Below, one piece after another: positions 1,906-58,733 of a stretch of DNA of 58,733 nt (positions are counted from its first letter, which is position 1; the number at the start of each line of letters is the position of its first letter). Below the pieces are notes generated by a model. It had not been told where the DNA came from. It saw nothing but the letters and a program-made list of their open reading frames with translations, and did no database searches. The position numbers and the translations under genes were made by a program. This DNA comes from a virus (Duplodnaviria > Caudoviricetes): positions 1 through 58,733 of IMG/VR virus record IMGVR_UViG_3300028766_000008, one strand, 5' to 3'.

Positions 1906-2105
1906 AATTTCCCCTTGCGTAAGAGTGCTTCCATCGCCGTTTCGTCTGTAGGAGCTGTTTCTGCGGCCTTGGCCTCTGCCATAATCGCGTTAACATTTGC
2001 CTGTAGATCGTCGGCGCGTTGGGAGTCTGCCGTTTTGGCAGGAAAAAGCCGCCCCCAGAATGTGCTGAAGGCGGCTTTAATCACTGAGGCGATAAAGCCC
2101 CACAT
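1902..2105 (-). CDS. Small protein, i-spanin-like candidate
   Basis: Hydrophobic N-terminus, helical C-terminus, ATGA overlap with lipoprotein gene. Confidence 0.4.
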   Translation of the reverse strand: MWGFIASVIKAAFSTFWGRLFPAKTADSQRADDLQANVNAIMAEAKAAETAPTDETAMEALLRKGKL

Positions 2106-2107
2106 GC

Positions 2108-2521
2108 TTAGGCTGCAGGTGCTGGATCGACAGGAGCAGCTTCGGCGGGTGCAGCAGCAACAGGCGTAGCAGCCACCGGAACGGCAGTCACAGCCTGATT
2201 ATGCACGGCTGCAACAAACGTGCTGAGCGTAGTAGCCGCAACAGTCTTGCCAGCCGTTACAAAAGCCTGTTCGGCAAGAGAGATGCCTTCGGAGATAATG
2301 GCAGAAGTTGGATTGCCAGCAGCAACGCCAGCAAGGATCGAAGTGCCGACATTTTCAACAATACTGAGTAAATCGCCAGGAGCGATTGTCTTTAGTTCAG
2401 CCCAAGCCGCTGTAGCAGCCGTATCAATGGCCGAACCTACGGTTGAGCCCTGCCAGCCAGCAGCGATGTCATGAAATACCGCGCTAAAGTTACCTGCTTC
2501 TAGATCCTGCAAAACGCCCAT
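2108..2521 (-). CDS. Ala-rich hypothetical protein of lysis cassette
   Basis: SD ggag upstream; 137 aa ORF collinear with operon. Confidence 0.6.
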   Translation of the reverse strand: MGVLQDLEAGNFSAVFHDIAAGWQGSTVGSAIDTAATAAWAELKTIAPGDLLSIVENVGTSILAGVAAGNPTSAIISEGISLAEQAFVTAGKTVAATTLSTFVAAVHNQAVTAVPVAATPVAAAPAEAAPVDPAPAA

Positions 2522-3389: not shown

Positions 3390-4703
3390 TTATACTCCGT
3401 CACAGTCATAATCTATTTTACCCGCAAGAGCCGTCCCCGTGACGGTCAAAACGGTAGTTGTGTAGCTATAGGCAAAGGCTGCATTAACAGATTGGCTCGT
3501 TACGCGGCAATGGTTCCATGTGCTGTAGCCCGTACCTGCGAAGGTGATTGTGCAGGAGGCGGGAGTTCCGGCTGTAATGCTTACAGTGCCGGATTTGTTA
3601 TTTGCGCGTGCATCGATTGTGTTTGTTCCGCAAGCCGAAACCACAGGAGCGGCGAGGCTGTTGCTGTTAGCGAATATCATGCCGCCGATGTTGATTTCAT
3701 TGGATGTGGAAGAGGCTACAGTATCCACCGCAGTACTCGTGCCGATCAGGATATTCGAATTACCCGTCGTAAGCGTCGTATTAGCAACATTATAACCAAT
3801 AAGTGTGTTGTTCGTTCCATTAGTGACAGTGCCGCCAGTAAAGGCACCAAACGCCGTATTACGGGCGCCAGTAGCAACTACAAGCGCCTGCGAACCGACG
3901 GCCGTCTCCCCGCTTGAAGAAGAATTAGTATACAAAGCCTGGAAACCAAATGCTGTATTATCCCCTCCGATATTGTCATTGGTGAGCGCGGAGTTACCGA
4001 GCGCGGAATTTCTCCGTCCCGTAGTTATAGAGTTTCCGGCTTGGTATCCCACGGCGGTATCAGCCAACGCCGCAGTGGTCATAGTACCGTTCAAGGCCTG
4101 ATAACCTATAGCTGTATTTCCGTAAGCTGCGCTGGATGTCTGCCCTGATAGAGCATTAACGCCAATCGCAATCGATCCACCAGTTGTTGAATCCGTGGTT
4201 GGGAATCTGATGGCATTGTTGCCATTAAACAGAATGCCGCCGGTCGTCAGATTGAGATTACCTGTACCCTGCGGGGTCAGGTTCAACGTAATATTCGTAT
4301 CCGTACCCGCTGCAGCGATGATCGGATTTGCTCCAGTTGCAGCACCAGCGAAAGTTGGATAGTTCACAACCGTGCCAGAACCTTGCAAGAATCTTCCGGC
4401 CTCTTTACCTCCAGCGGCAACAGATAAGGTCGATGATGTTGCGGATTGAAACAGACCTGATGCCGTATCCGTCGATACTGCCCAGCCCGGTGCGCTGACA
4501 GTGCCCTTGTTGAACGTTCCGCCGCCACCAGCAGAACAAGTATTAGTAGATGGTACCCAGACATAACCAGCAGTTGAGCAACCAGTTTGTGTTTGTATAG
4601 CTGCCGCAATCGACGCAGCAGTAGTCGGAACGGTTGTAACGGCTTTTAGACCAGCATATGCAGGGCAACTTATAAGCAGCAAGAATATTAGAAGATATTT
4701 CAT
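3390..4703 (-). CDS. Fibre/adhesin-like beta-repeat protein with signal-peptide-like N-terminus
   Basis: Likely start MKYLLIFLLLISCPAYA at 4703; NTAxGxxAL repeats resembling YadA-head/tail-fibre beta-rolls. Confidence 0.7.
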   Translation of the reverse strand: MKYLLIFLLLISCPAYAGLKAVTTVPTTAASIAAAIQTQTGCSTAGYVWVPSTNTCSAGGGGTFNKGTVSAPGWAVSTDTASGLFQSATSSTLSVAAGGKEAGRFLQGSGTVVNYPTFAGAATGANPIIAAAGTDTNITLNLTPQGTGNLNLTTGGILFNGNNAIRFPTTDSTTGGSIAIGVNALSGQTSSAAYGNTAIGYQALNGTMTTAALADTAVGYQAGNSITTGRRNSALGNSALTNDNIGGDNTAFGFQALYTNSSSSGETAVGSQALVVATGARNTAFGAFTGGTVTNGTNNTLIGYNVANTTLTTGNSNILIGTSTAVDTVASSTSNEINIGGMIFANSNSLAAPVVSACGTNTIDARANNKSGTVSITAGTPASCTITFAGTGYSTWNHCRVTSQSVNAAFAYSYTTTVLTVTGTALAGKIDYDCDGV

Positions 4704-5590: not shown

Positions 5591-5769
5591 TCTATCCCCG
5601 CTACAAACAAAGAGTTTATTTCACGTTTGAAAACAGACTTCTTGAAGCCACTGTTTTCGTCAATAGTGATAAGCTCCCAACCTTCGGCTCCGAGCTTATT
5701 ATAACGATCTTCCATTTCCTTCTCATCCAAAGGAGGGAATGCCGTTATGCGATATTCAAATTTTGCCAT
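5587..5769 (-). CDS. Small DUF4177-like protein
   Basis: FEY...NKLGAEGWELI...VFKRE pattern. Confidence 0.6.
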   Translation of the reverse strand: MAKFEYRITAFPPLDEKEMEDRYNKLGAEGWELITIDENSGFKKSVFKREINSLFVAGIE

Positions 5770-24799: not shown

Positions 24800-25276
24800 T
24801 TAACCAAGTTTTTCGATTTTAGAAGCGCGTTCTTCATTGTTTCCAACAAATTCAGAAGTTGTTTCTGGGCTAACTTTTTGAATACGCTTCTTGCTATTCA
24901 TTTTAGCGCCCATAATTTTAACACCATTAGGGTTTTGAACCGTTTGCAAACGACGAGCATCTTCTGAAGCGTTGGCAATCATTTCATCTTTAGTGCGTGG
25001 ACGACCAGCATAATAACGACCATTGCGCTCAGCTACAATGCGTGCGCTTTCTTCCAAAGAATCAACATATTTTTCAAACGCTTCTTGCGCCAGTTCATTC
25101 ATTGGCTCCATATCCTCGTTCGGCGTATCATAAAGAACAATGAGTTCGCCCGATGGATGCAGCGTGTCATCTGGGCCAAAAAATCCCTGTTCATTAAGAA
25201 TACGATAAACAGGACGATCTTGCGGAATAGCAGGATCGCGTTTTTGAACGGGAGGCGCTGTAAAAAGCTGAACCAT
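24800..25276 (-). CDS. Hypothetical head-module protein
   Basis: SD aaggag; collinear ORF. Confidence 0.6.
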   Translation of the reverse strand: MVQLFTAPPVQKRDPAIPQDRPVYRILNEQGFFGPDDTLHPSGELIVLYDTPNEDMEPMNELAQEAFEKYVDSLEESARIVAERNGRYYAGRPRTKDEMIANASEDARRLQTVQNPNGVKIMGAKMNSKKRIQKVSPETTSEFVGNNEERASKIEKLG

Positions 25277-25294
25277 AAAGTCTCCTTTGTTTAG

Positions 25295-25324
25295 AAAAAC
25301 CCGTGACCATTTCTGGCCACGGGG
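25295..25324 (-). terminator. Intrinsic terminator after capsid/cement genes
   Basis: Minus strand cccgtggcca-gaaa-tggtcacggg followed by ttttt. Confidence 0.75.
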
Positions 25325-25332
25325 TATGCGTA

Positions 25333-25890
25333 TTAACCAGCGATGTAATTGTTTGCGTATTGATTGCCCAGCAAACCAGCTTTTGTGCCAGCAAAGCTTG
25401 GAGGATTTAGCGTCATAAACGAATTGACGCTAAGGGTAATGGTCGTGTTCGATACCGTGTAAACAAGCTTGTAAAAGCGAGGAAGTGCTTCGCCCATAGC
25501 TGCCAAGGTAGACGGTACAGGAAAGTACAAAACAGAACCAGCGTACAGCATCGTACTGCCAGAAAGCGCAGCGGACGTGTAAATGGTAGTGTAAGTGCCT
25601 TGACCATACGAACCGTTATCAGGAGCAGCCTGCAAGGTGATAGTCATGGTGCCGGTTACTGTCGTGACGGTATTAATCGTTACGACAACATAAGGTTGTG
25701 CCATTCCATCGCCAACACCGTAATCAACGCCGATTGCAGTATTGGTTGCAGGGAAACCATTAATCATTGAAGGAGCATTGCCTGAGCCAGCACCCGTAAT
25801 ATCAATGATGGTGGAGGTTGTGGTTGTATTAGCGATTGCTAGTACAGTGTTGACCGCCGTATTGAAAGACAAACTATTATCCAAGTACAT
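25333..25890 (-). CDS. Capsid cement protein (Bbp16-like)
   Basis: MYLDNSLSF...STIIDI...PRFYKLVYTV; directly after major capsid. Confidence 0.7.
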   Translation of the reverse strand: MYLDNSLSFNTAVNTVLAIANTTTTSTIIDITGAGSGNAPSMINGFPATNTAIGVDYGVGDGMAQPYVVVTINTVTTVTGTMTITLQAAPDNGSYGQGTYTTIYTSAALSGSTMLYAGSVLYFPVPSTLAAMGEALPRFYKLVYTVSNTTITLSVNSFMTLNPPSFAGTKAGLLGNQYANNYIAG

Positions 25891-29239: not shown

Positions 29240-31120
29240 TTACCCACCATTCGCTCCGGTTCCTAATAACTGAGAAAGCGCATTAGCGCCGCCGCCTATA
29301 TCTGTACTTGCAAGAGTTTGTCCAGCTTGTGCGGCTATATTGGCTGTTTGCGCAACATGCTGCATTGCTTGCATCTTAGCCGTTGCCTGAGCAGCCTTAG
29401 CTTGCATATCGTTAATCTGTTTATATTGATCTGGCGAACGAATGATGCGCTGCTGGTTGCCAAGAAGGTCGTTCATAACACGAACATATTGTTCAGCATC
29501 AAGAATATTTTTAATTTCAGGATATATAGGATCCATATTGCCAATTAAAGCAGCCAAACGTTCCAATCCTCCTGTAGCAGCAGCTTTTTGAGACAACGCC
29601 AACATAGAAACAAAATTGACGCCCAAAGGCACACCCTTTAACGAAGGGGGCGGTGGATCTATAAAACCTTTGCGTTGCAAAATTCCGTAAATACGTTTCA
29701 GTTTTAACTTTAAAACCCCAAGCATATTTTCGATAACAGGCCCAAGTACAGTTAATTTTTCTTGAACTTTTTGTGCCACTTCGTATGCCGTCATACGATC
29801 AGAACCAGCACCTTGCTCTAGCATCAAAAACAAATCATTAAAAAAAGCTACTTTAATACGTTGCTCAATCGCCGCAATGTTTGCCGACATTGCCGCCACA
29901 TCAGGATTAACTTGATATATGGAACGCATACCCGTTCCTGCATCAAGTTTAGGCACATATGTAACATGGCCAGGCAATGCCGACGATGGTTGATTCTTCA
30001 TTGACATGTCCGCCAACAAAGGTGGACGAACCTGCTTTTCAATGGCTTCCGCTAATCTGCGTGTCATAACTTGGAGCTGAATAACATCAGGGAGAGCGTC
30101 CATACCGGGACTGCGCCCATAAGCATCGTTTGATTGTGTTGACCAACGAGCAACCGTAAACGGCTGGTCATGAAACCCACGAATTGATAAAGGTTCTTTG
30201 CTGCCAGAAGCCCACACCCAGTAAACTTCTCTCCACGCAAAATCGCCAGGTACTTTACCAATTTTTCCTTTTCCAACAGCAAAATTTGGTTCAATAGAAT
30301 GTGATATAGTGCGTTCCTGATCTAACGCAGAACCTTTTTGTGACCACATAGCTTTAATATCGTCAGGAGGAGTCTGACTGCCAAAAAAGTCTATGGTTTG
30401 TAAAATGGTTTGTAGAAATTGACGGTTAAATGTATCAACTCTATTTGATCCATCATTCCCTAAATAATGTTCGCCAATGCAAGGATTATAACAACGAATA
30501 ATGTCTCTTTGATCTTCATAAATAAGACATGGGGCTGTCCCAAAAACAACCACATCTTCTTTTTCCTGGGCTTCAGATTCATAAAAATTAGAAGCAGCCA
30601 ATATTTTATAAAAACGATCTTCAGTTTCGTCCATCCATTGACGGCCAGCGGTATCAAGATCTTTATGGGCAATCGCCGAAACCATTTTAAACCAAGGCCG
30701 CGATGGCGATACCAAGCCAGATACAAGGCCGCCAGAGCAAATACGTGCGGCATAAGTAGCTGTAGGATCAACAATTGATTTATTGATTTCTCTGCCACGA
30801 AGCATATTATTGGGGGTTGGCATACCGCCAGAAGATTGAGTCAACCAAATAGAACGACGAGGCAATTCAAACTCAGCTAAATCAGACCAGTTTTGCATCC
30901 ACCACGAATAACGCCATGCTCGTAATCCGTTTAATCGTTCAGTTAAATGCTTTTCAAGTTCTTGCCAATCTTTACCTATTGGCTTTTTGTTCATAGGTGG
31001 ATCGTTTGGCTGCAAACTTAATACGGTTGGGCTTTCTTGATCGTAAAAAGCACCCACAGAATTTTTCGGCATTGCCACAGGGTTTTGTTTGGTTATTTTA
31101 TTTAATAACTGTTTACCCAC
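29240..31120 (-). CDS. Portal (head-tail connector) protein
   Basis: SPSRPWF, YGRSPGMDALPD, MTAYEV...EKLTVLGPV motifs. Confidence 0.9.
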   Translation of the reverse strand: MGKQLLNKITKQNPVAMPKNSVGAFYDQESPTVLSLQPNDPPMNKKPIGKDWQELEKHLTERLNGLRAWRYSWWMQNWSDLAEFELPRRSIWLTQSSGGMPTPNNMLRGREINKSIVDPTATYAARICSGGLVSGLVSPSRPWFKMVSAIAHKDLDTAGRQWMDETEDRFYKILAASNFYESEAQEKEDVVVFGTAPCLIYEDQRDIIRCYNPCIGEHYLGNDGSNRVDTFNRQFLQTILQTIDFFGSQTPPDDIKAMWSQKGSALDQERTISHSIEPNFAVGKGKIGKVPGDFAWREVYWVWASGSKEPLSIRGFHDQPFTVARWSTQSNDAYGRSPGMDALPDVIQLQVMTRRLAEAIEKQVRPPLLADMSMKNQPSSALPGHVTYVPKLDAGTGMRSIYQVNPDVAAMSANIAAIEQRIKVAFFNDLFLMLEQGAGSDRMTAYEVAQKVQEKLTVLGPVIENMLGVLKLKLKRIYGILQRKGFIDPPPPSLKGVPLGVNFVSMLALSQKAAATGGLERLAALIGNMDPIYPEIKNILDAEQYVRVMNDLLGNQQRIIRSPDQYKQINDMQAKAAQATAKMQAMQHVAQTANIAAQAGQTLASTDIGGGANALSQLLGTGANGG

Positions 31121-54440: not shown

Positions 54441-54776
54441 GGGAGCACCCTTTCTAGATGCTTAATCCAGTCGGCCTCAAATCGCCAATCCTTGCCTTCA
54501 TATCTAACAATAACATCCACTCTGCTTCCCTGTTGGCAACATTCAACTAGAGACTCTATTGAGTTCTGTTGTAAGTTGTTGAGCATATCTTGTGATAACA
54601 TCCAATCGCTGTTCATGCCCCCACCCCAAACTGACCATTTTCTTCCTCTTCGCACTCATTGGCTATATCAATACATTGCAAGCAATACGGGCCTTCTTTG
54701 TTAAGCATCGTATAATGCCGATCACCTACGTTCACACCGCAATCAAGACAGATAAAATCGCCTGATATTTCCTTGT

Positions 54777-55358
54777 TCATGGCAAATTCCTTTTAGCCTT
54801 ACGTTTTATCTTCGCGGCATAGTTAGCCTGCTCTATAGGGCGCCTCCCAAGCACTGATTTGGCCGTATTGAGGGAAACACCAGCCTCCTTAAGCAAAATC
54901 TCTGTAGGCCATTCCTTTGAAGGCATGGGCCACCTGTCTTTGATCTTGGCAATACCTTCTGCGCTTTTCTTTTTGCGAATATCTGCGGATATTTTACCAC
55001 CTACCTTGGCAGCGCCATTTTTACGAGCATCTTTCCATGCCATAACAAAGGGCAATCGAGGAATTGGCGTTTTCCATGATTGATTTTCCTCAACGCTATG
55101 TATTAGCGCGCCGCGCTTGTTAGCCATATTAATAAAGTTATTAATGTCTTTTTCATCGTCTGAAATAACGGCTATGCTCGAGACATAAAATTCTGTAATA
55201 GATTTTCTTTTTGTGTTTCTGAGCAAACTATACATGCCAGACACACCTTCAAAAATATTAATTTGATCCGGAGGAAGCATAGCCGCAGGAGCAATCGTCA
55301 AAACTTGGTGAGTTTTGCTTCTCCACGTTAAGTCAGAAATAAAGGCATTTGAGGTCAT
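54777..55358 (-). CDS. Degenerate serine-resolvase-like protein with C-terminal HTH
   Basis: AFISDL in place of YxRVS; YVSSIAVIS for VxxLDRLxR; RGALIHSVEE; C-terminal LLKEAGVSLNTA; by-eye resemblance only. Confidence 0.45.
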   Translation of the reverse strand: MTSNAFISDLTWRSKTHQVLTIAPAAMLPPDQINIFEGVSGMYSLLRNTKRKSITEFYVSSIAVISDDEKDINNFINMANKRGALIHSVEENQSWKTPIPRLPFVMAWKDARKNGAAKVGGKISADIRKKKSAEGIAKIKDRWPMPSKEWPTEILLKEAGVSLNTAKSVLGRRPIEQANYAAKIKRKAKRNLP

Positions 55359-55388
55359 TTTGTAACTTTCTTGCGTTTCGTTGTTGAC

Positions 55389-55431
55389 ACTATAATTCGT
55401 GCTTGACAGTTTGTCAATGACGGATTATATC
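55389..55431. promoter_or_regulatory. Overlapping divergent sigma70-like promoters
   Basis: Palindrome TTGACA-gtt-TGTCAA (55403-55417); minus TTGACA-17-TATAGT; plus TTGACA-17-TATATC. Confidence 0.65.
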
Positions 55432-55463
55432 TTTTTATATCAAGACAACAAACGGAGCCAATC

Positions 55464-55688
55464 ATGAAAGACCTATCTCACCTTAACGCTTTAGAAAATG
55501 GCCTAGCGAATGAACTGATGCGCCTTTCTAACGCTAAAACAGCTGGCGAACGAGAAATGCGTACGGTGTGGGTCAATCAACGCAAGAAAGAAATTGCCGG
55601 AGAAAAGAAGTTTTTGGGCATTGAAGAAACAGCCCTAGATGTTCTCTTGATGAGCGATGACGAACTACTTGCCGAACTTTCAGCTTAG
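55464..55688 (+). CDS. Small helical protein, paralogue of the 40.3 kb gene
   Basis: SD ggag; MKDLSHL...GEKKFLG...MSDDELL. Confidence 0.7.
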   Translation: MKDLSHLNALENGLANELMRLSNAKTAGEREMRTVWVNQRKKEIAGEKKFLGIEETALDVLLMSDDELLAELSA

Positions 55689-55698
55689 CCACTAACCC

Positions 55699-55816
55699 CA
55701 ATTTTTACTAAGTGAGCCGCCACAGGTCAGGCGGGGCTGAAATTCAGGATTGACCGTCTTGAAAAGCCGCAACCGGCTAGAGAAATCTAGAGCAGGGCCT
55801 CACGCAGTAAGAATTG
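55699..55816 (+). ncRNA. Candidate structured RNA (multi-stem, possible kissing loop)
   Basis: Closing stems caatttttact/agtaagaattg and gtgag/ctcac; four internal hairpins; complementary loops ggtca/tgacc. Confidence 0.6.
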
Positions 55817-55849
55817 CATCAACCCCTAACCCCAGAATTGGACAAATCA

Positions 55850-56212
55850 ATGAGCTTACCTTTTCTCTATCTGATTTTTTGCGTTCTTCCATCCGCTGCT
55901 GGATGGGCTGGAACTTTCACGATCTTGGGGATTATTACTCTTGTCGTGCTAGGCATCGCAATTGCCTTTATGACGTCAGTTGAATACAACGATGACGACA
56001 AAAAGAAATCAGCAGCAGTTATTTCTTATGCAAAGAAACTTTCTGGTTTCGTAATCTTGCTGGTGATCTTGGATGTGTTTCTTCCAGACCAAAGTCAGAT
56101 TTATAAAATTACTGGCGCATATGCCGTCACCAATAATGCTGAAATGGCTAAATTGCCTGACAACATTCTTAAGGCGGCAAATGGCTATCTTGAGAAGTTG
56201 AACGCAAAGTAA
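55850..56212 (+). CDS. Multi-pass membrane protein
   Basis: Start MSLPFLY; two to three hydrophobic segments. Confidence 0.65.
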   Translation: MSLPFLYLIFCVLPSAAGWAGTFTILGIITLVVLGIAIAFMTSVEYNDDDKKKSAAVISYAKKLSGFVILLVILDVFLPDQSQIYKITGAYAVTNNAEMAKLPDNILKAANGYLEKLNAK

Positions 56213-56250
56213 CCTTTAACCCCCAGAAACTTAACCCGAAGGAGAAGCCC

Positions 56251-56625
56251 GTGAGCAAATTAGACGATCTTACTATTGGAGAAGCCAAACAACTCGCTTC
56301 TCTTTTCTGCAAAGCCAATACGCCAATCGAATCGTGCTCGGATAATCACCCCATGATCGGCAAGCGTTGCTTGATTCGCACATATTCGGCTGGTGTCCAC
56401 ATTGGCGATGTTGTCGCCGTCAACGGTATGGAGGTGCAACTCGAAAACGCCCTGCGCCTTTGGAAGTGGGAAGGCGGCGGCCTCTCGCTTTCTGCCGTGG
56501 CAAACAATGGAATCGTCAAGGGCCGTTTGAACAAAACTGGCAGCATTTACTTGACGAATGCCATTGAGTTTATTCCCACAACCAAGGAAGCGGAGAAGTC
56601 CTTTGCAAAATTTATCGAAGATTAA
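56251..56625 (+). CDS. DUF6948-like protein
   Basis: IRTYSAGVHIG...LENALRLWKW...SLSAVA; SD aaggag before GTG. Confidence 0.7.
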   Translation: MSKLDDLTIGEAKQLASLFCKANTPIESCSDNHPMIGKRCLIRTYSAGVHIGDVVAVNGMEVQLENALRLWKWEGGGLSLSAVANNGIVKGRLNKTGSIYLTNAIEFIPTTKEAEKSFAKFIED

Positions 56626-56959
56626 AGCTGCTCATCATGGGGTTGATTGCTACGGCGACGGCTACGGCTCCGGCTCCGGCTACGGCTCCGGCTCCGGCTA
56701 CGGCTACGGCGACGGCTCCGGCTCCGGCGACGGCTCCGGCTCCGGCTACGGCTCCGGCTCCGGCTACGGCTCCGGCTCCGGCTACGGCTCCGGCTCCGGC
56801 TCCGGCTACGGCTACGGCTACGGCTCCGGCTACGGCTACGGCGACGGCTCCGGCTCCGGCTACGGCTACGGCTACGGCGACGGCTCCGGCTCCGGCTACG
56901 GCTCCGGCGACGGCTCCGGCTCCGGCGACGGCTACGGCTCCGGCTCCGGCGACGGCTAA
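56603..56959 (+). CDS. (Gly-X)n protein, X = Y/S/D
   Basis: TTG at 56603 with SD ggag; 51 tandem XXXggc units at 56651-56956. Confidence 0.6.
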   Translation: MQNLSKIKAAHHGVDCYGDGYGSGSGYGSGSGYGYGDGSGSGDGSGSGYGSGSGYGSGSGYGSGSGSGYGYGYGSGYGYGDGSGSGYGYGYGDGSGSGYGSGDGSGSGDGYGSGSGDG

Positions 56960-57007
56960 AAATTTTTAATTTTCTGAATGCACACTAACCCCAAAACGAG
57001 ACAGATC

Positions 57008-57313
57008 ATGAAAAAACTAGCCCTTATGGCACTGTGGATATTGGCAGCATGTCATCCTGATAAGCCAGCAAAAACAGACGACACCTATTCCGCATCCTGT
57101 CTTGAAAAAGATTACACAGGTATGTACGGCAATGATCTTGTTGTTGGGCTTGGTTCTGAAGCCCAAGGTGCATGCAATGTACTCATTGGCTCTTATCTCT
57201 CGGTTCCGGAATCTCACCCTGACTATTTTGAGAACATCGGAAATCGGCTGTGCCGCGATATAAGGACAGACCAGTCACTAGATTGCAAAACCGGGCTTCC
57301 AATCAACCACTAA
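57008..57313 (+). CDS. Lipoprotein
   Basis: MKKLALMALWILAA-C lipobox; four more Cys. Confidence 0.7.
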   Translation: MKKLALMALWILAACHPDKPAKTDDTYSASCLEKDYTGMYGNDLVVGLGSEAQGACNVLIGSYLSVPESHPDYFENIGNRLCRDIRTDQSLDCKTGLPINH

Positions 57314-57347
57314 CCCCAATTTCTACAAACCAGCCAAAGGGAAACGT

Positions 57348-58274
57348 ATGACTACACAAAAGAGCCAAGCCGAAATTGAAATCGAAGCCCTTCAGGATGT
57401 TTTTAACATTGCCACAACTGGCTTTAATGAGTTTTACAAAACAGCCAAGGAAAAGGATAAAGGCAACCACAGCACAGCCGCATCGTCGGGCAACGGCAGC
57501 ACAGCCGCATCGTCGGGCAACTACAGCACAGCCGCATCGTCGGGCTACGGCAGCAAAGCCGCATCGTCGGGCAACTACAGCACAGCCGCATCGTCGGGCA
57601 ACCACAGCACAGCCGCATCGTCGGGTGACGACAGCACAGCCGCATCGTCGGGCAACGGCAGCACAGCCGCATCGTCGGGTGACCACAGCACAGCCGCATC
57701 GTCGGGCTACGGCAGCAAAGCCGCATCGTCGGGCTACGGCAGCACAGCCGCATCGTCGGGTGACCACAGCACAGCCGCATCGTCGGGCTACGTCAGCAAA
57801 GCCGCATCGTCGGGCTACTACAGCACAGCCGCATCGTCGGGCTACTACAGCACAGCCGCATCGTCGGGCAACTACAGCACAGCCGCATCGTCGGGCTACG
57901 GCAGCACAGCCGCATCGTCGGGTGACGACAGCAAAGCCGAATGTGCAGGAGAGAACAGCGGATGCACAAGCATTGGTTATCGCGCCGCCGTTAAAGGCGA
58001 TCTTGGCAACCTGATAATGGCTTCCGAATATGTTGTGGAAAACAACAAGGCCATTCCAGTCGGCGGCAAAGCAGACATCATTGACGGTAAAAAACTTAAA
58101 CCGCAGTGCTGGTACATCGTTGAAAAAGACGCATGGGTTGAGGTCGATTTCACGGATGGCGTGTTCTCATACGTCCTGTCCAATAAAAAGGGCGTGAAGA
58201 AGGTCAAGACCGAACAAGGAAATGTTCTATATGTCGTAAACGACAAGAAAAGATTGGATTTGAAAAATGTCTGA
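57348..58274 (+). CDS. 9-aa-repeat protein (17 full repeats plus one partial), lacking the C-terminal domain of its paralogue
   Basis: ORF track and alignment with 58511..747. Confidence 0.85.
   Translation: MTTQKSQAEIEIEALQDVFNIATTGFNEFYKTAKEKDKGNHSTAASSGNGSTAASSGNYSTAASSGYGSKAASSGNYSTAASSGNHSTAASSGDDSTAASSGNGSTAASSGDHSTAASSGYGSKAASSGYGSTAASSGDHSTAASSGYVSKAASSGYYSTAASSGYYSTAASSGNYSTAASSGYGSTAASSGDDSKAECAGENSGCTSIGYRAAVKGDLGNLIMASEYVVENNKAIPVGGKADIIDGKKLKPQCWYIVEKDAWVEVDFTDGVFSYVLSNKKGVKKVKTEQGNVLYVVNDKKRLDLKNV
57462..57938. repeat. 27-nt tandem repeat array ggY-NAC-NNC-agc-aMa-gcc-gca-tcg-tcg
   Basis: Counted 17 full units plus a partial one. Confidence 0.95.
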
Positions 58275-58467
58275 TCAAACAACTACGAAATGCTGGCCTT
58301 GGGCGCATCAATGGTCGAAATGGTCAGAAGTCATAACGGGATATGTTGGAAAAAGCCAATGGCGTGTTTGCAGCTGCTGCGGAAAGATAAAATCTCGAAA
58401 CATAGAGTACGCGAACCAAGCTGATTCATACACAATAAACAATGCCATTAAGGAGATACCGCAATGA
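58267..58467 (+). CDS. Small Cys/His protein
   Basis: C....HQW...CSCCG; between the two repeat paralogues. Confidence 0.55.
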   Translation: MSDQTTTKCWPWAHQWSKWSEVITGYVGKSQWRVCSCCGKIKSRNIEYANQADSYTINNAIKEIPQ

Positions 58468-58510
58468 AACCACTAACCCCAATTTCTACAAACCAGCCAA
58501 AGGGAAACGT

Positions 58511-58733
58511 ATGACTACACAAAAGAGCCAAGCCGAAATTGAAATCGAAGCCCTTCAGGATGTTTTTAACATCGCCACAACCGGCTTTGACGAGTTTTAT
58601 AAAACTGCCAAGGAGAAGGATAAGGATAAGGGCGACTACAGCACAGCCGCATCGTCGGGCTACTACAGCACAGCCGCATCGTCGGGCTACGGCAGCAAAG
58701 CCGCATCGTCGGGCTACGGCAGCAAAGCCGCAT
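58511..58733 (+). CDS. N-terminal part of second 9-aa-repeat protein (continues at base 1)
   Basis: MTTQKSQAEIEIEALQDVFN identical to 57348 gene; open to the window end. Confidence 0.85.
   Translation, partial: MTTQKSQAEIEIEALQDVFNIATTGFDEFYKTAKEKDKDKGDYSTAASSGYYSTAASSGYGSKAASSGYGSKAA

Follow-up and report, generated by a model that had tools for sequence, protein, structure and literature searches.

On its plus strand, at positions 55699..55816, the window (the whole stretch of DNA analysed here, i.e. the complete 58,733-bp IMG/VR virus record IMGVR_UViG_3300028766_000008) carries a 118-nt structured element, delimited by sequence reading and RNAfold. This element is non-coding, folds in a strand-specific manner into a closed four-way junction and is placed between two linkers, independently of both neighbouring genes. 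We propose that it might be a self-contained structured RNA module, which would be co-transcribed early, trimmed at its terminal helix P1 and act through its shape, and we give this reading a probability of roughly one in three. A stand-alone RNA is the reading that best accounts for how the element is placed as a module and for its closed architecture of tRNA size. Its transcription, its excision and its action in trans are inferred.

As judged from the sequence searches, the element is a single sequence from an uncultured peat phage, with no relatives found and belonging to no known Rfam family. Its status as a functional RNA rests on this one sequence, which makes it a credible but unproven orphan candidate. 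Antitermination, a decoy function and catalysis had been put forward in the initial, sequence-only reading; the evidence favours none of the three.

Fold of the element

The two ends of the element pair with each other in the 11-bp helix P1 (55699-55709/55806-55816, one G-U pair), which is separated by a 2x2 internal loop (AA/GC) from the 5-bp helix P2 (55712-55716/55799-55803). P1 and P2 together close a four-way junction without any unpaired base, whose arms are P3, P4/P4b and P5. The arm P3 (55717-55734) consists of 5 bp (ccgcc/ggcgg) and an 8-nt loop, ACAGGUCA. The second arm begins with the 4-bp helix P4 (55735-55738/55765-55768) and is extended, beyond an internal loop (GAAA/A), by the 8-bp helix P4b (55743-55763; ttcaggat/gtcttgaa, two G-U pairs) with the loop UGACC. 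P5 (55769-55798) is an interrupted stem, and within it lies the hairpin P5b (55777-55790; CUAGA-GAAA-UCUAG) with the loop GAAA. All these features refer to the plus strand, and every pairing in the stems and hairpins listed by the sequence-only reading was found in the sequence where that reading had placed it.

In isolation, the 118 nt fold with -44.6 kcal/mol (z -4.60, none of 200 dinucleotide shuffles being equally stable), and a second, separate set of shuffles gave a z of -4.52. The helix probabilities in the isolated element are 0.98-0.99 for P1 to P4, 0.92 for P4b and 0.62-0.65 for P5. When the whole intergenic gap of 161-162 nt is folded, the structure of the plus strand is unchanged (z -2.62), whereas the minus strand of the gap reaches a z of only -1.16, with 27 of 200 shuffles as good. 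Since the fold contains three G-U pairs, the structure is one of the plus strand only, and the comparison of -4.60 for the 118 nt on the plus strand with -1.16 for the minus strand of the gap is in line with the earlier claim that these pairs favour the plus strand.

The loops of P3 and P4b contain ggtca (55725-55729) and tgacc (55751-55755), which are Watson-Crick complementary, as had been noticed before; for simulated loops of 8 nt and 5 nt the chance of such a complementarity is 0.0039, a value computed after the fact. Two short reading frames touching the element were set aside as coding sequences: a 13-codon GTG frame (55712-55753) has no ribosome-binding site, and a 77-aa TTG frame (55750-55983) likewise has none and overlaps the next gene out of frame.

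Stability of the fold against the genomic background and in long transcripts

The genome was scanned in 7816 windows of 118 nt on both strands using a GC-corrected score, and 6 of the 7816 scored equal to or below the element. Equally stable stretches occur at 29876-29993 (minus strand), 25216-25333 (plus strand) and 2021-2138 (minus strand), with shuffle z-values of -4.4 to -4.5 (about -4.4 for the three), and they lie in or beside coding sequence. Of the 22 gaps that contain no ORF and span 100 nt or more, only the operator region folds as well as the element. No other non-coding stretch of the genome is as structured as this promoter gap (55359-55463; z -5.1 on the plus and -4.0 on the minus strand), and such folding is what DNA palindromes would lead one to expect.

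If the folded segment is shifted by 10 nt, so that it ends at 55806 and P1 is cut, z drops to -1.0; the stability signal therefore depends on P1. Because the 5' strand of P1 lies within a linker that also occurs without the pairing partner, P1 may be partly fortuitous. Within 350-750 nt of flanking mRNA, the closed fold has a probability of 0.13-0.16 and is only 1.8 kcal/mol worse than the optimum. In this long context P3 (0.77) and P4b (0.93) are kept, and P4 and P5 are replaced by an AGCCG/CGGCU hairpin (0.81-0.84). The sequence-only reading had counted this hairpin (agccg-caac-cggct) among the parts of the element, which holds for the long mRNA and not for the isolated fold, where its probability is 0.0 and AGCC is paired with a GGCU upstream of it. 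The pairs that compete with the closed fold in the long mRNA involve translated sequence. Thermodynamic prediction alone is therefore suggestive and not decisive.

The early operon and its surroundings

The 24 public runs listed as holding the stretch are all peat metagenomes (DNA), with no RNA run among them. Structural genes (terminase-like, portal-type, major head and tail proteins) occupy the minus strand, and their products share 33-70% identity with those of the 62.9-kb record G010; the large terminase-like protein has 482 aa (phrog_2, phrog_5653) and the portal-type protein 626 aa. Primase and RecE/RecT-like genes form a block on the plus strand. The element belongs to a short rightward operon, which extends from 55464 to about 900 and runs across the record ends. 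Long tandem AASSGxxS(T/K) repeats are shared by two paralogous genes, at 57348-58274 and at 58502-58733 / 1-747, and both record ends fall within the second of them. Since, in addition, the record begins and ends with the same 145 nt apart from 3 mismatches, it was probably in this repeat that the assembly broke. The genome is likely to be circular or circularly permuted.

The rightward and the leftward operon diverge at 55359-55463, where a sigma70-like divergent early promoter and operator region (55389..55432) is found. The leftward promoter (TTGACA-17-TATAGT, 55417 to 55389, minus strand) was detected by a consensus scan (11/12). The rightward promoter (TTGACA at 55404-55409, a spacer of 17 nt and TATATC at 55427-55432, plus strand) was read by eye, the consensus scan rejecting TATATC for its last base, which is not T. 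A perfect palindrome, TTGACAGTTTGTCAA (55404-55418, read by eye), overlaps both -35 boxes and is, judging from its sequence, probably the operator for a dimeric regulator. The first leftward gene (54777-55358, minus strand) encodes a 193-aa protein whose predicted fold is resolvase-like, with an HTH at the C-terminus (Atlas 0.90-0.93, TM about 0.5), and for which we obtained no Pfam match, Resolvase included, and, on inspection, no evident catalytic-serine motif. This protein is probably a DNA-binding regulator and may be a recombinase relic serving as such.

The first gene of the rightward operon (55464..55688, plus strand, from the ORF list) encodes a helical 74-aa protein of no family, with no Pfam or PHROG match and nothing above 0.77 in the Atlas. 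The next gene (55850..56212, plus strand) encodes a predicted membrane protein of 120 aa (phrog_3878, unknown function) and is followed by a DUF6948 gene (56251..56625, plus strand, Pfam E 1.2e-21). The element starts 11 nt past the stop of the 74-aa gene, approximately 260 nt from the putative rightward promoter, and ends 33 nt upstream of the start of the membrane-protein gene. The ORF-free gap of 161-162 nt that contains it compares with spacers of about 10-40 nt elsewhere in the operon.

No terminator-like sites were found on the plus strand in 54500-58733 or in 1-1500. At the end of the rightward operon there is a hairpin, GCCGGAGAG-N8-CTCTCCGGC (862-896), followed by a poor T tract, which may be a weak terminator, although the consensus scan made no call. 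The element itself was considered as an intrinsic terminator or attenuator and rejected, since P1 is followed by GCAUCAACCCC with no U tract, and since there is no plus-strand terminator-like site in 54500-58733.

Linkers and the mosaic slot

The motif TAACCCC is present 14 times in the window, compared to 4.5 expected copies, and none of 100 shuffles reaches 14. Seven copies are intergenic and on the plus strand (907, 55693, 55827, 56217, 56986, 57311 and 58474); all of them belong to this one operon and lie 17-37 nt before start codons, so that a TAACCCC linker precedes most genes of the rightward operon. A second AACC unit often precedes the copies of the operon, a frequent form being AACCnnTAACCCC. 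The copy at 58474 lies in a 16-codon mini-frame (58464-58514), which overlaps by ATGA with both flanking genes and may serve translational coupling.

The sequence-only reading had described the element as filling the space between two TAACCCC motifs like a cassette, and the copies at 55693-55699 and 55827-55833 do bracket it. The former belongs to a 23-nt 5' linker, CCACTAACCCCAATTTTTACTAA (55689..55711, plus strand), which recurs with 91% identity at 57307-57329 and 58470-58492, both before genes; its 3' half also provides the 5' strand of P1. The latter is part of a tandem 7-mer, CAACCCC TAACCCC (55820..55833, plus strand). In the viral contig L099, which has no protein in common with the window, a 19-20-nt version of the linker, CCACTAACCCCAATTTTTA, is tandemly duplicated between genes (5697-5712). 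A 16-mer of the linker matched 15 times in IMG/VR, which by our own arithmetic is no more than chance. The linkers could act as recombination linkers, as RNA signals or as Rho loading sites.

The neighbours of the element have relatives, and these do not carry it. For the 74-aa protein we found 14 viral relatives (39-58% identity), none of which is followed by the RNA element. The 120-aa protein has none in viral contigs, and its sole metagenomic relative (L089, 83% amino acid identity) has no RNA upstream of its gene. In L089, TAACCCC is found on both sides of this gene (235-241 and 624-630), the upstream slot is taken by an unrelated ORF ending in TAACCCC, and the homology to the window starts exactly at the 3' linker (55820..55833). 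In the peat run X22, a variant contig likewise no longer follows the window immediately upstream of 55830. DUF6948 is a widely shared mosaic module with relatives in 55 viral loci; the neighbour genes of the window are not conserved in these 55 loci, and the RNA element is present in none of them. Since the relatives of both the upstream and the downstream gene lack the RNA, a device dedicated to either neighbour is unlikely. By sequence comparison, the element occupies a slot like that of a gene, located at a mosaic junction, and is independent of both neighbouring genes.

Search for known families and homologs

The sequence-only reading could not match the element to a tRNA or to a known riboswitch or ribozyme, and this assessment stands: ARAGORN predicted no tRNA gene, and none of the 4227 models of Rfam 15, among them riboswitches, ribozymes, tRNA, tmRNA, Y RNA-like and phage motifs, reached its gathering score anywhere in the window. 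At E<=10 nothing overlapped the element in a search of 701 nt, and a search of 151 nt with lax filters gave one 9.2-bit match to bxd_2 (gathering score 80) on the minus strand. The comparison with Rfam, which that reading had asked for, thus revealed no known family at odds with an orphan RNA.

Homologs were not found either. By blastn, 1001 nt gave no match to GenBank phages, 147 nt gave six records with E>=2, none of which covered more than 21% of the query, and plasmids gave none. Exact probes from P3 (19-mer), P4b (21-mer) and P5 (19-mer) each had zero matches in the 2.9 M viral contigs of IMG/VR, and a pattern made of the loops only retrieved 16 loci there, none of which was positive by covariance model. 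The covariance model R1, built from the single sequence and run over the window and 14 loci, recovered at E<=10 only the element itself, without a second copy in the genome. It had no match in 71 loci and in 16 further ones, no homologue over 101 to approximately 130 related loci in all, a best E of 0.45 in five loci with filters off, and no match over 45 whole related virus records. Contigs from four peat runs show no variant within the element, so that the population data are silent.

Two apparent leads were discarded. The P4b 21-mer matched one of 185,579 genomes, a Deltaproteobacteria MAG, and this was rejected as chance: by our own arithmetic about 0.3 chance matches are expected for a 21-mer in that many genomes, the site is antisense to the 3' end of a 4Fe-4S dicluster (ferredoxin-type) gene, and the region folds differently (z -1.67), its 23.8 bits with R1 being driven by the 21-mer. 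A link to tRNAs via DUF6948 was likewise dismissed. ARAGORN placed a tRNA within approximately 125 nt upstream of this gene in 7 of the 55 loci; six of the seven are near-identical arrays and the seventh lacks confirmation by Rfam, and an association in 6 of 55 loci is too few. The six (L057, L058, L059, L060, L065 and L069) belong to one phage lineage and possess an Arg-Leu-Met tRNA array (approximately 3560-3970), which ends about 35-40 nt before the DUF6948 homologue; two of them include a further, unusual tRNA for which a 4-base anticodon was called. The DUF6948 gene of the window is located one gene downstream of the RNA element.

The element resembles the tRNA cloverleaf in its three hairpin arms with a terminal helix and in a GG-bearing loop that is complementary to another one. 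However, a tRNA can be discarded, as there is neither an ARAGORN prediction nor a match to RF00005, the terminal helix has 11+5 bp, the arm lengths are wrong, and the T-loop motif and the CCA end are absent. Another likeness is that to the c4 antisense RNA of P1/P7 and the CI RNA of P4 (C4, RF01695), which are small structured RNAs cut from a phage operon transcript. The loops of c4-type RNAs base-pair with sites in their own operon. The RF01695 model did not match the window at E<=10, and in contrast to c4-type loops with their targets in the operon, the element has no complement above chance in the phage: the longest one elsewhere measures 11 nt, and this is also the most frequent value among 200 shuffled controls. 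It is thus improbable that the RNA works as an antisense regulator of genes of the phage.

Proposed mode of action and alternative explanations

If the element is a self-contained RNA module, the host sigma70 polymerase would transcribe it within a polycistronic message starting about 260 nt upstream. It would fold locally into the closed four-way junction, with its 5' and 3' ends paired via P1 and P2, and would most likely be trimmed at the base of the terminal helix. Excised stable RNAs like tRNA and pRNA are usually built in this way, with a compact core of several helices that is closed by a terminal helix. The subsequent action of the RNA would depend on its folded shape: it would bind a protein or serve as a decoy, and would not be an antisense regulator of phage genes.

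Among the alternatives, the one that survives best, although we consider it unlikely, is that there is no RNA function at all. The element might be well-folding recombination debris at a mosaic junction, or it might consist of inverted repeats that matter at the DNA level, either as the target of the resolvase-like protein encoded next to it or as a short segment that can be inverted. The region is indeed strongly mosaic with homology breaking at the linkers, equally stable windows exist inside genes, and no homologue was found. However, the structure is specific to RNA and to one strand on account of its G-U pairs, the fold is bounded at the linkers, and debris of 160 nt is seldom retained in phage genomes. 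A role as DNA would fit the 193-aa leftward neighbour, with its predicted resolvase-like fold and HTH, and the 11-bp inverted repeats that bound the element, but this protein shows, as mentioned above, neither the Pfam match nor, on inspection, the serine motif of a resolvase. A MITE-like or invertible segment, as the 11-bp inverted ends might indicate, was rejected: there is no second copy in the genome, the exact probes gave no copies in viral contigs, the one match in 185,579 genomes is due to chance, and no strand-switch joint was seen in the contigs of four runs, the last being weak evidence.

It is also conceivable, though rather improbable, that the element acts in cis on the stability or processing of the operon mRNA, by offering a cleavage site of the RNase III type or a barrier to 3' exonucleases. 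The P1-P2 stack (approximately 18 stacked pairs) would then uncouple the level of the first cistron from that of the downstream ones. In T7, RNase III sites are located between the early genes, and these sites are single irregular hairpins. The element resembles them in its position between cistrons, on the sense strand of one putative early polycistronic transcript, and its long terminal helix with the symmetric 2x2 internal loop as well as the lack of a detectable trans target would be compatible with such a function. By description, however, it differs from the T7-type hairpin in having three further arms, and these, together with the perfect four-way junction, exceed what such sites need; moreover, it is absent from the relatives of either neighbouring gene.

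Clearly less probable is processive antitermination in cis, like that by HK022 put or lambda nut, with which the element shares that it is structured, putatively transcribed in cis and located in an early operon after the first gene. The nascent fold would bind the polymerase and carry it past terminators or past Rho-dependent stops in the C-rich linkers. The downstream linkers, being C-rich and G-poor, might resemble Rho loading sequences, and the distance of the element from its early promoter (approximately 260 nt, the promoter having been read by eye) is close to that of HK022 putR, which lies about 270 nt from the PR start (PMC9378689). The same source describes put RNAs as being about 70 nt long, with two stem-loops in a V shape, and as occurring as the pair putL and putR (PMC9378689). 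The element is set apart by this description in size, shape and copy number, being a single, closed four-way fold of 118 nt. In addition, where put RNA binds the zinc-binding domain of the RNA polymerase beta' subunit and suppresses terminators downstream, the operon of the element has no plus-strand site resembling an intrinsic terminator (none in 54500-58733 and 1-1500, as noted above), and no boxA-like sequence was recognized by eye.

Very doubtful is the idea of a small self-assembling RNA, in which GGUCA and UGACC would pair between molecules to form dimers or closed rings in the manner of the phi29 pRNA. The complementary loops are carried on arms of unequal length, 5 bp versus 12 bp (4+8) from the junction, and from this inequality it is only suggested that an intramolecular kiss of the loops would be strained. 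The phi29 pRNA (RF00044) is also encoded by a phage, is also approximately 120 nt long (120 nt for the active pRNA, 118 positions for the Rfam model) and also combines paired ends in a long terminal helix with a multi-helix junction and complementary loops. The pRNA is defined by a terminal helix of the 5' and 3' ends, a helical junction and two mutually complementary loops, and the loops 45AACC48 and 82GGUU85 of phi29 pRNA pair between molecules into a ring (PMC2241910). P1/P2, the junction, and GGUCA with UGACC are the corresponding parts of the element. The differences are nevertheless substantial: the RF00044 model had no match in the window at E<=10, the junction is four-way and not three-way as in phi29 pRNA, and the element lies in an early operon of unknown function and not at a genome end like the pRNA gene. 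Furthermore, pRNA serves the phi29-type ATPase gp16 of a small, protein-primed phage, whereas this 58.7-kb phage possesses an ordinary large terminase of 482 aa.

A new class of self-cleaving ribozyme that cuts the operon transcript between cistrons is hardly credible, since, although small ribozymes do occur between phage genes and the compact multi-helix fold has internal loops on two arms, no Rfam model matched the strand of the element at E<=10 (151 nt, lax filters), and a known catalytic core would hardly fit into a junction in which every base is paired.

Implications

As it stands, the element makes no long-standing question directly testable. If it is real, its two complementary loops would offer a simple system for tests of RNA self-assembly, and should the self-assembly proposed above be true, nature would have produced an oligomeric phage RNA a second time and independently, here for a different task and in the early operon of a tailed phage with a conventional terminase.

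To our knowledge, few phage non-coding RNAs other than tRNAs are understood. If the element is real, it would stand for a hitherto undescribed family of structured RNA, encoded by phages and behaving as a gene cassette, with its own slot among the linkers of the protein genes and swapped independently of its neighbours. An early, tRNA-sized RNA with a four-way junction would then be a candidate for a role in host takeover, anti-defence or transcription control.
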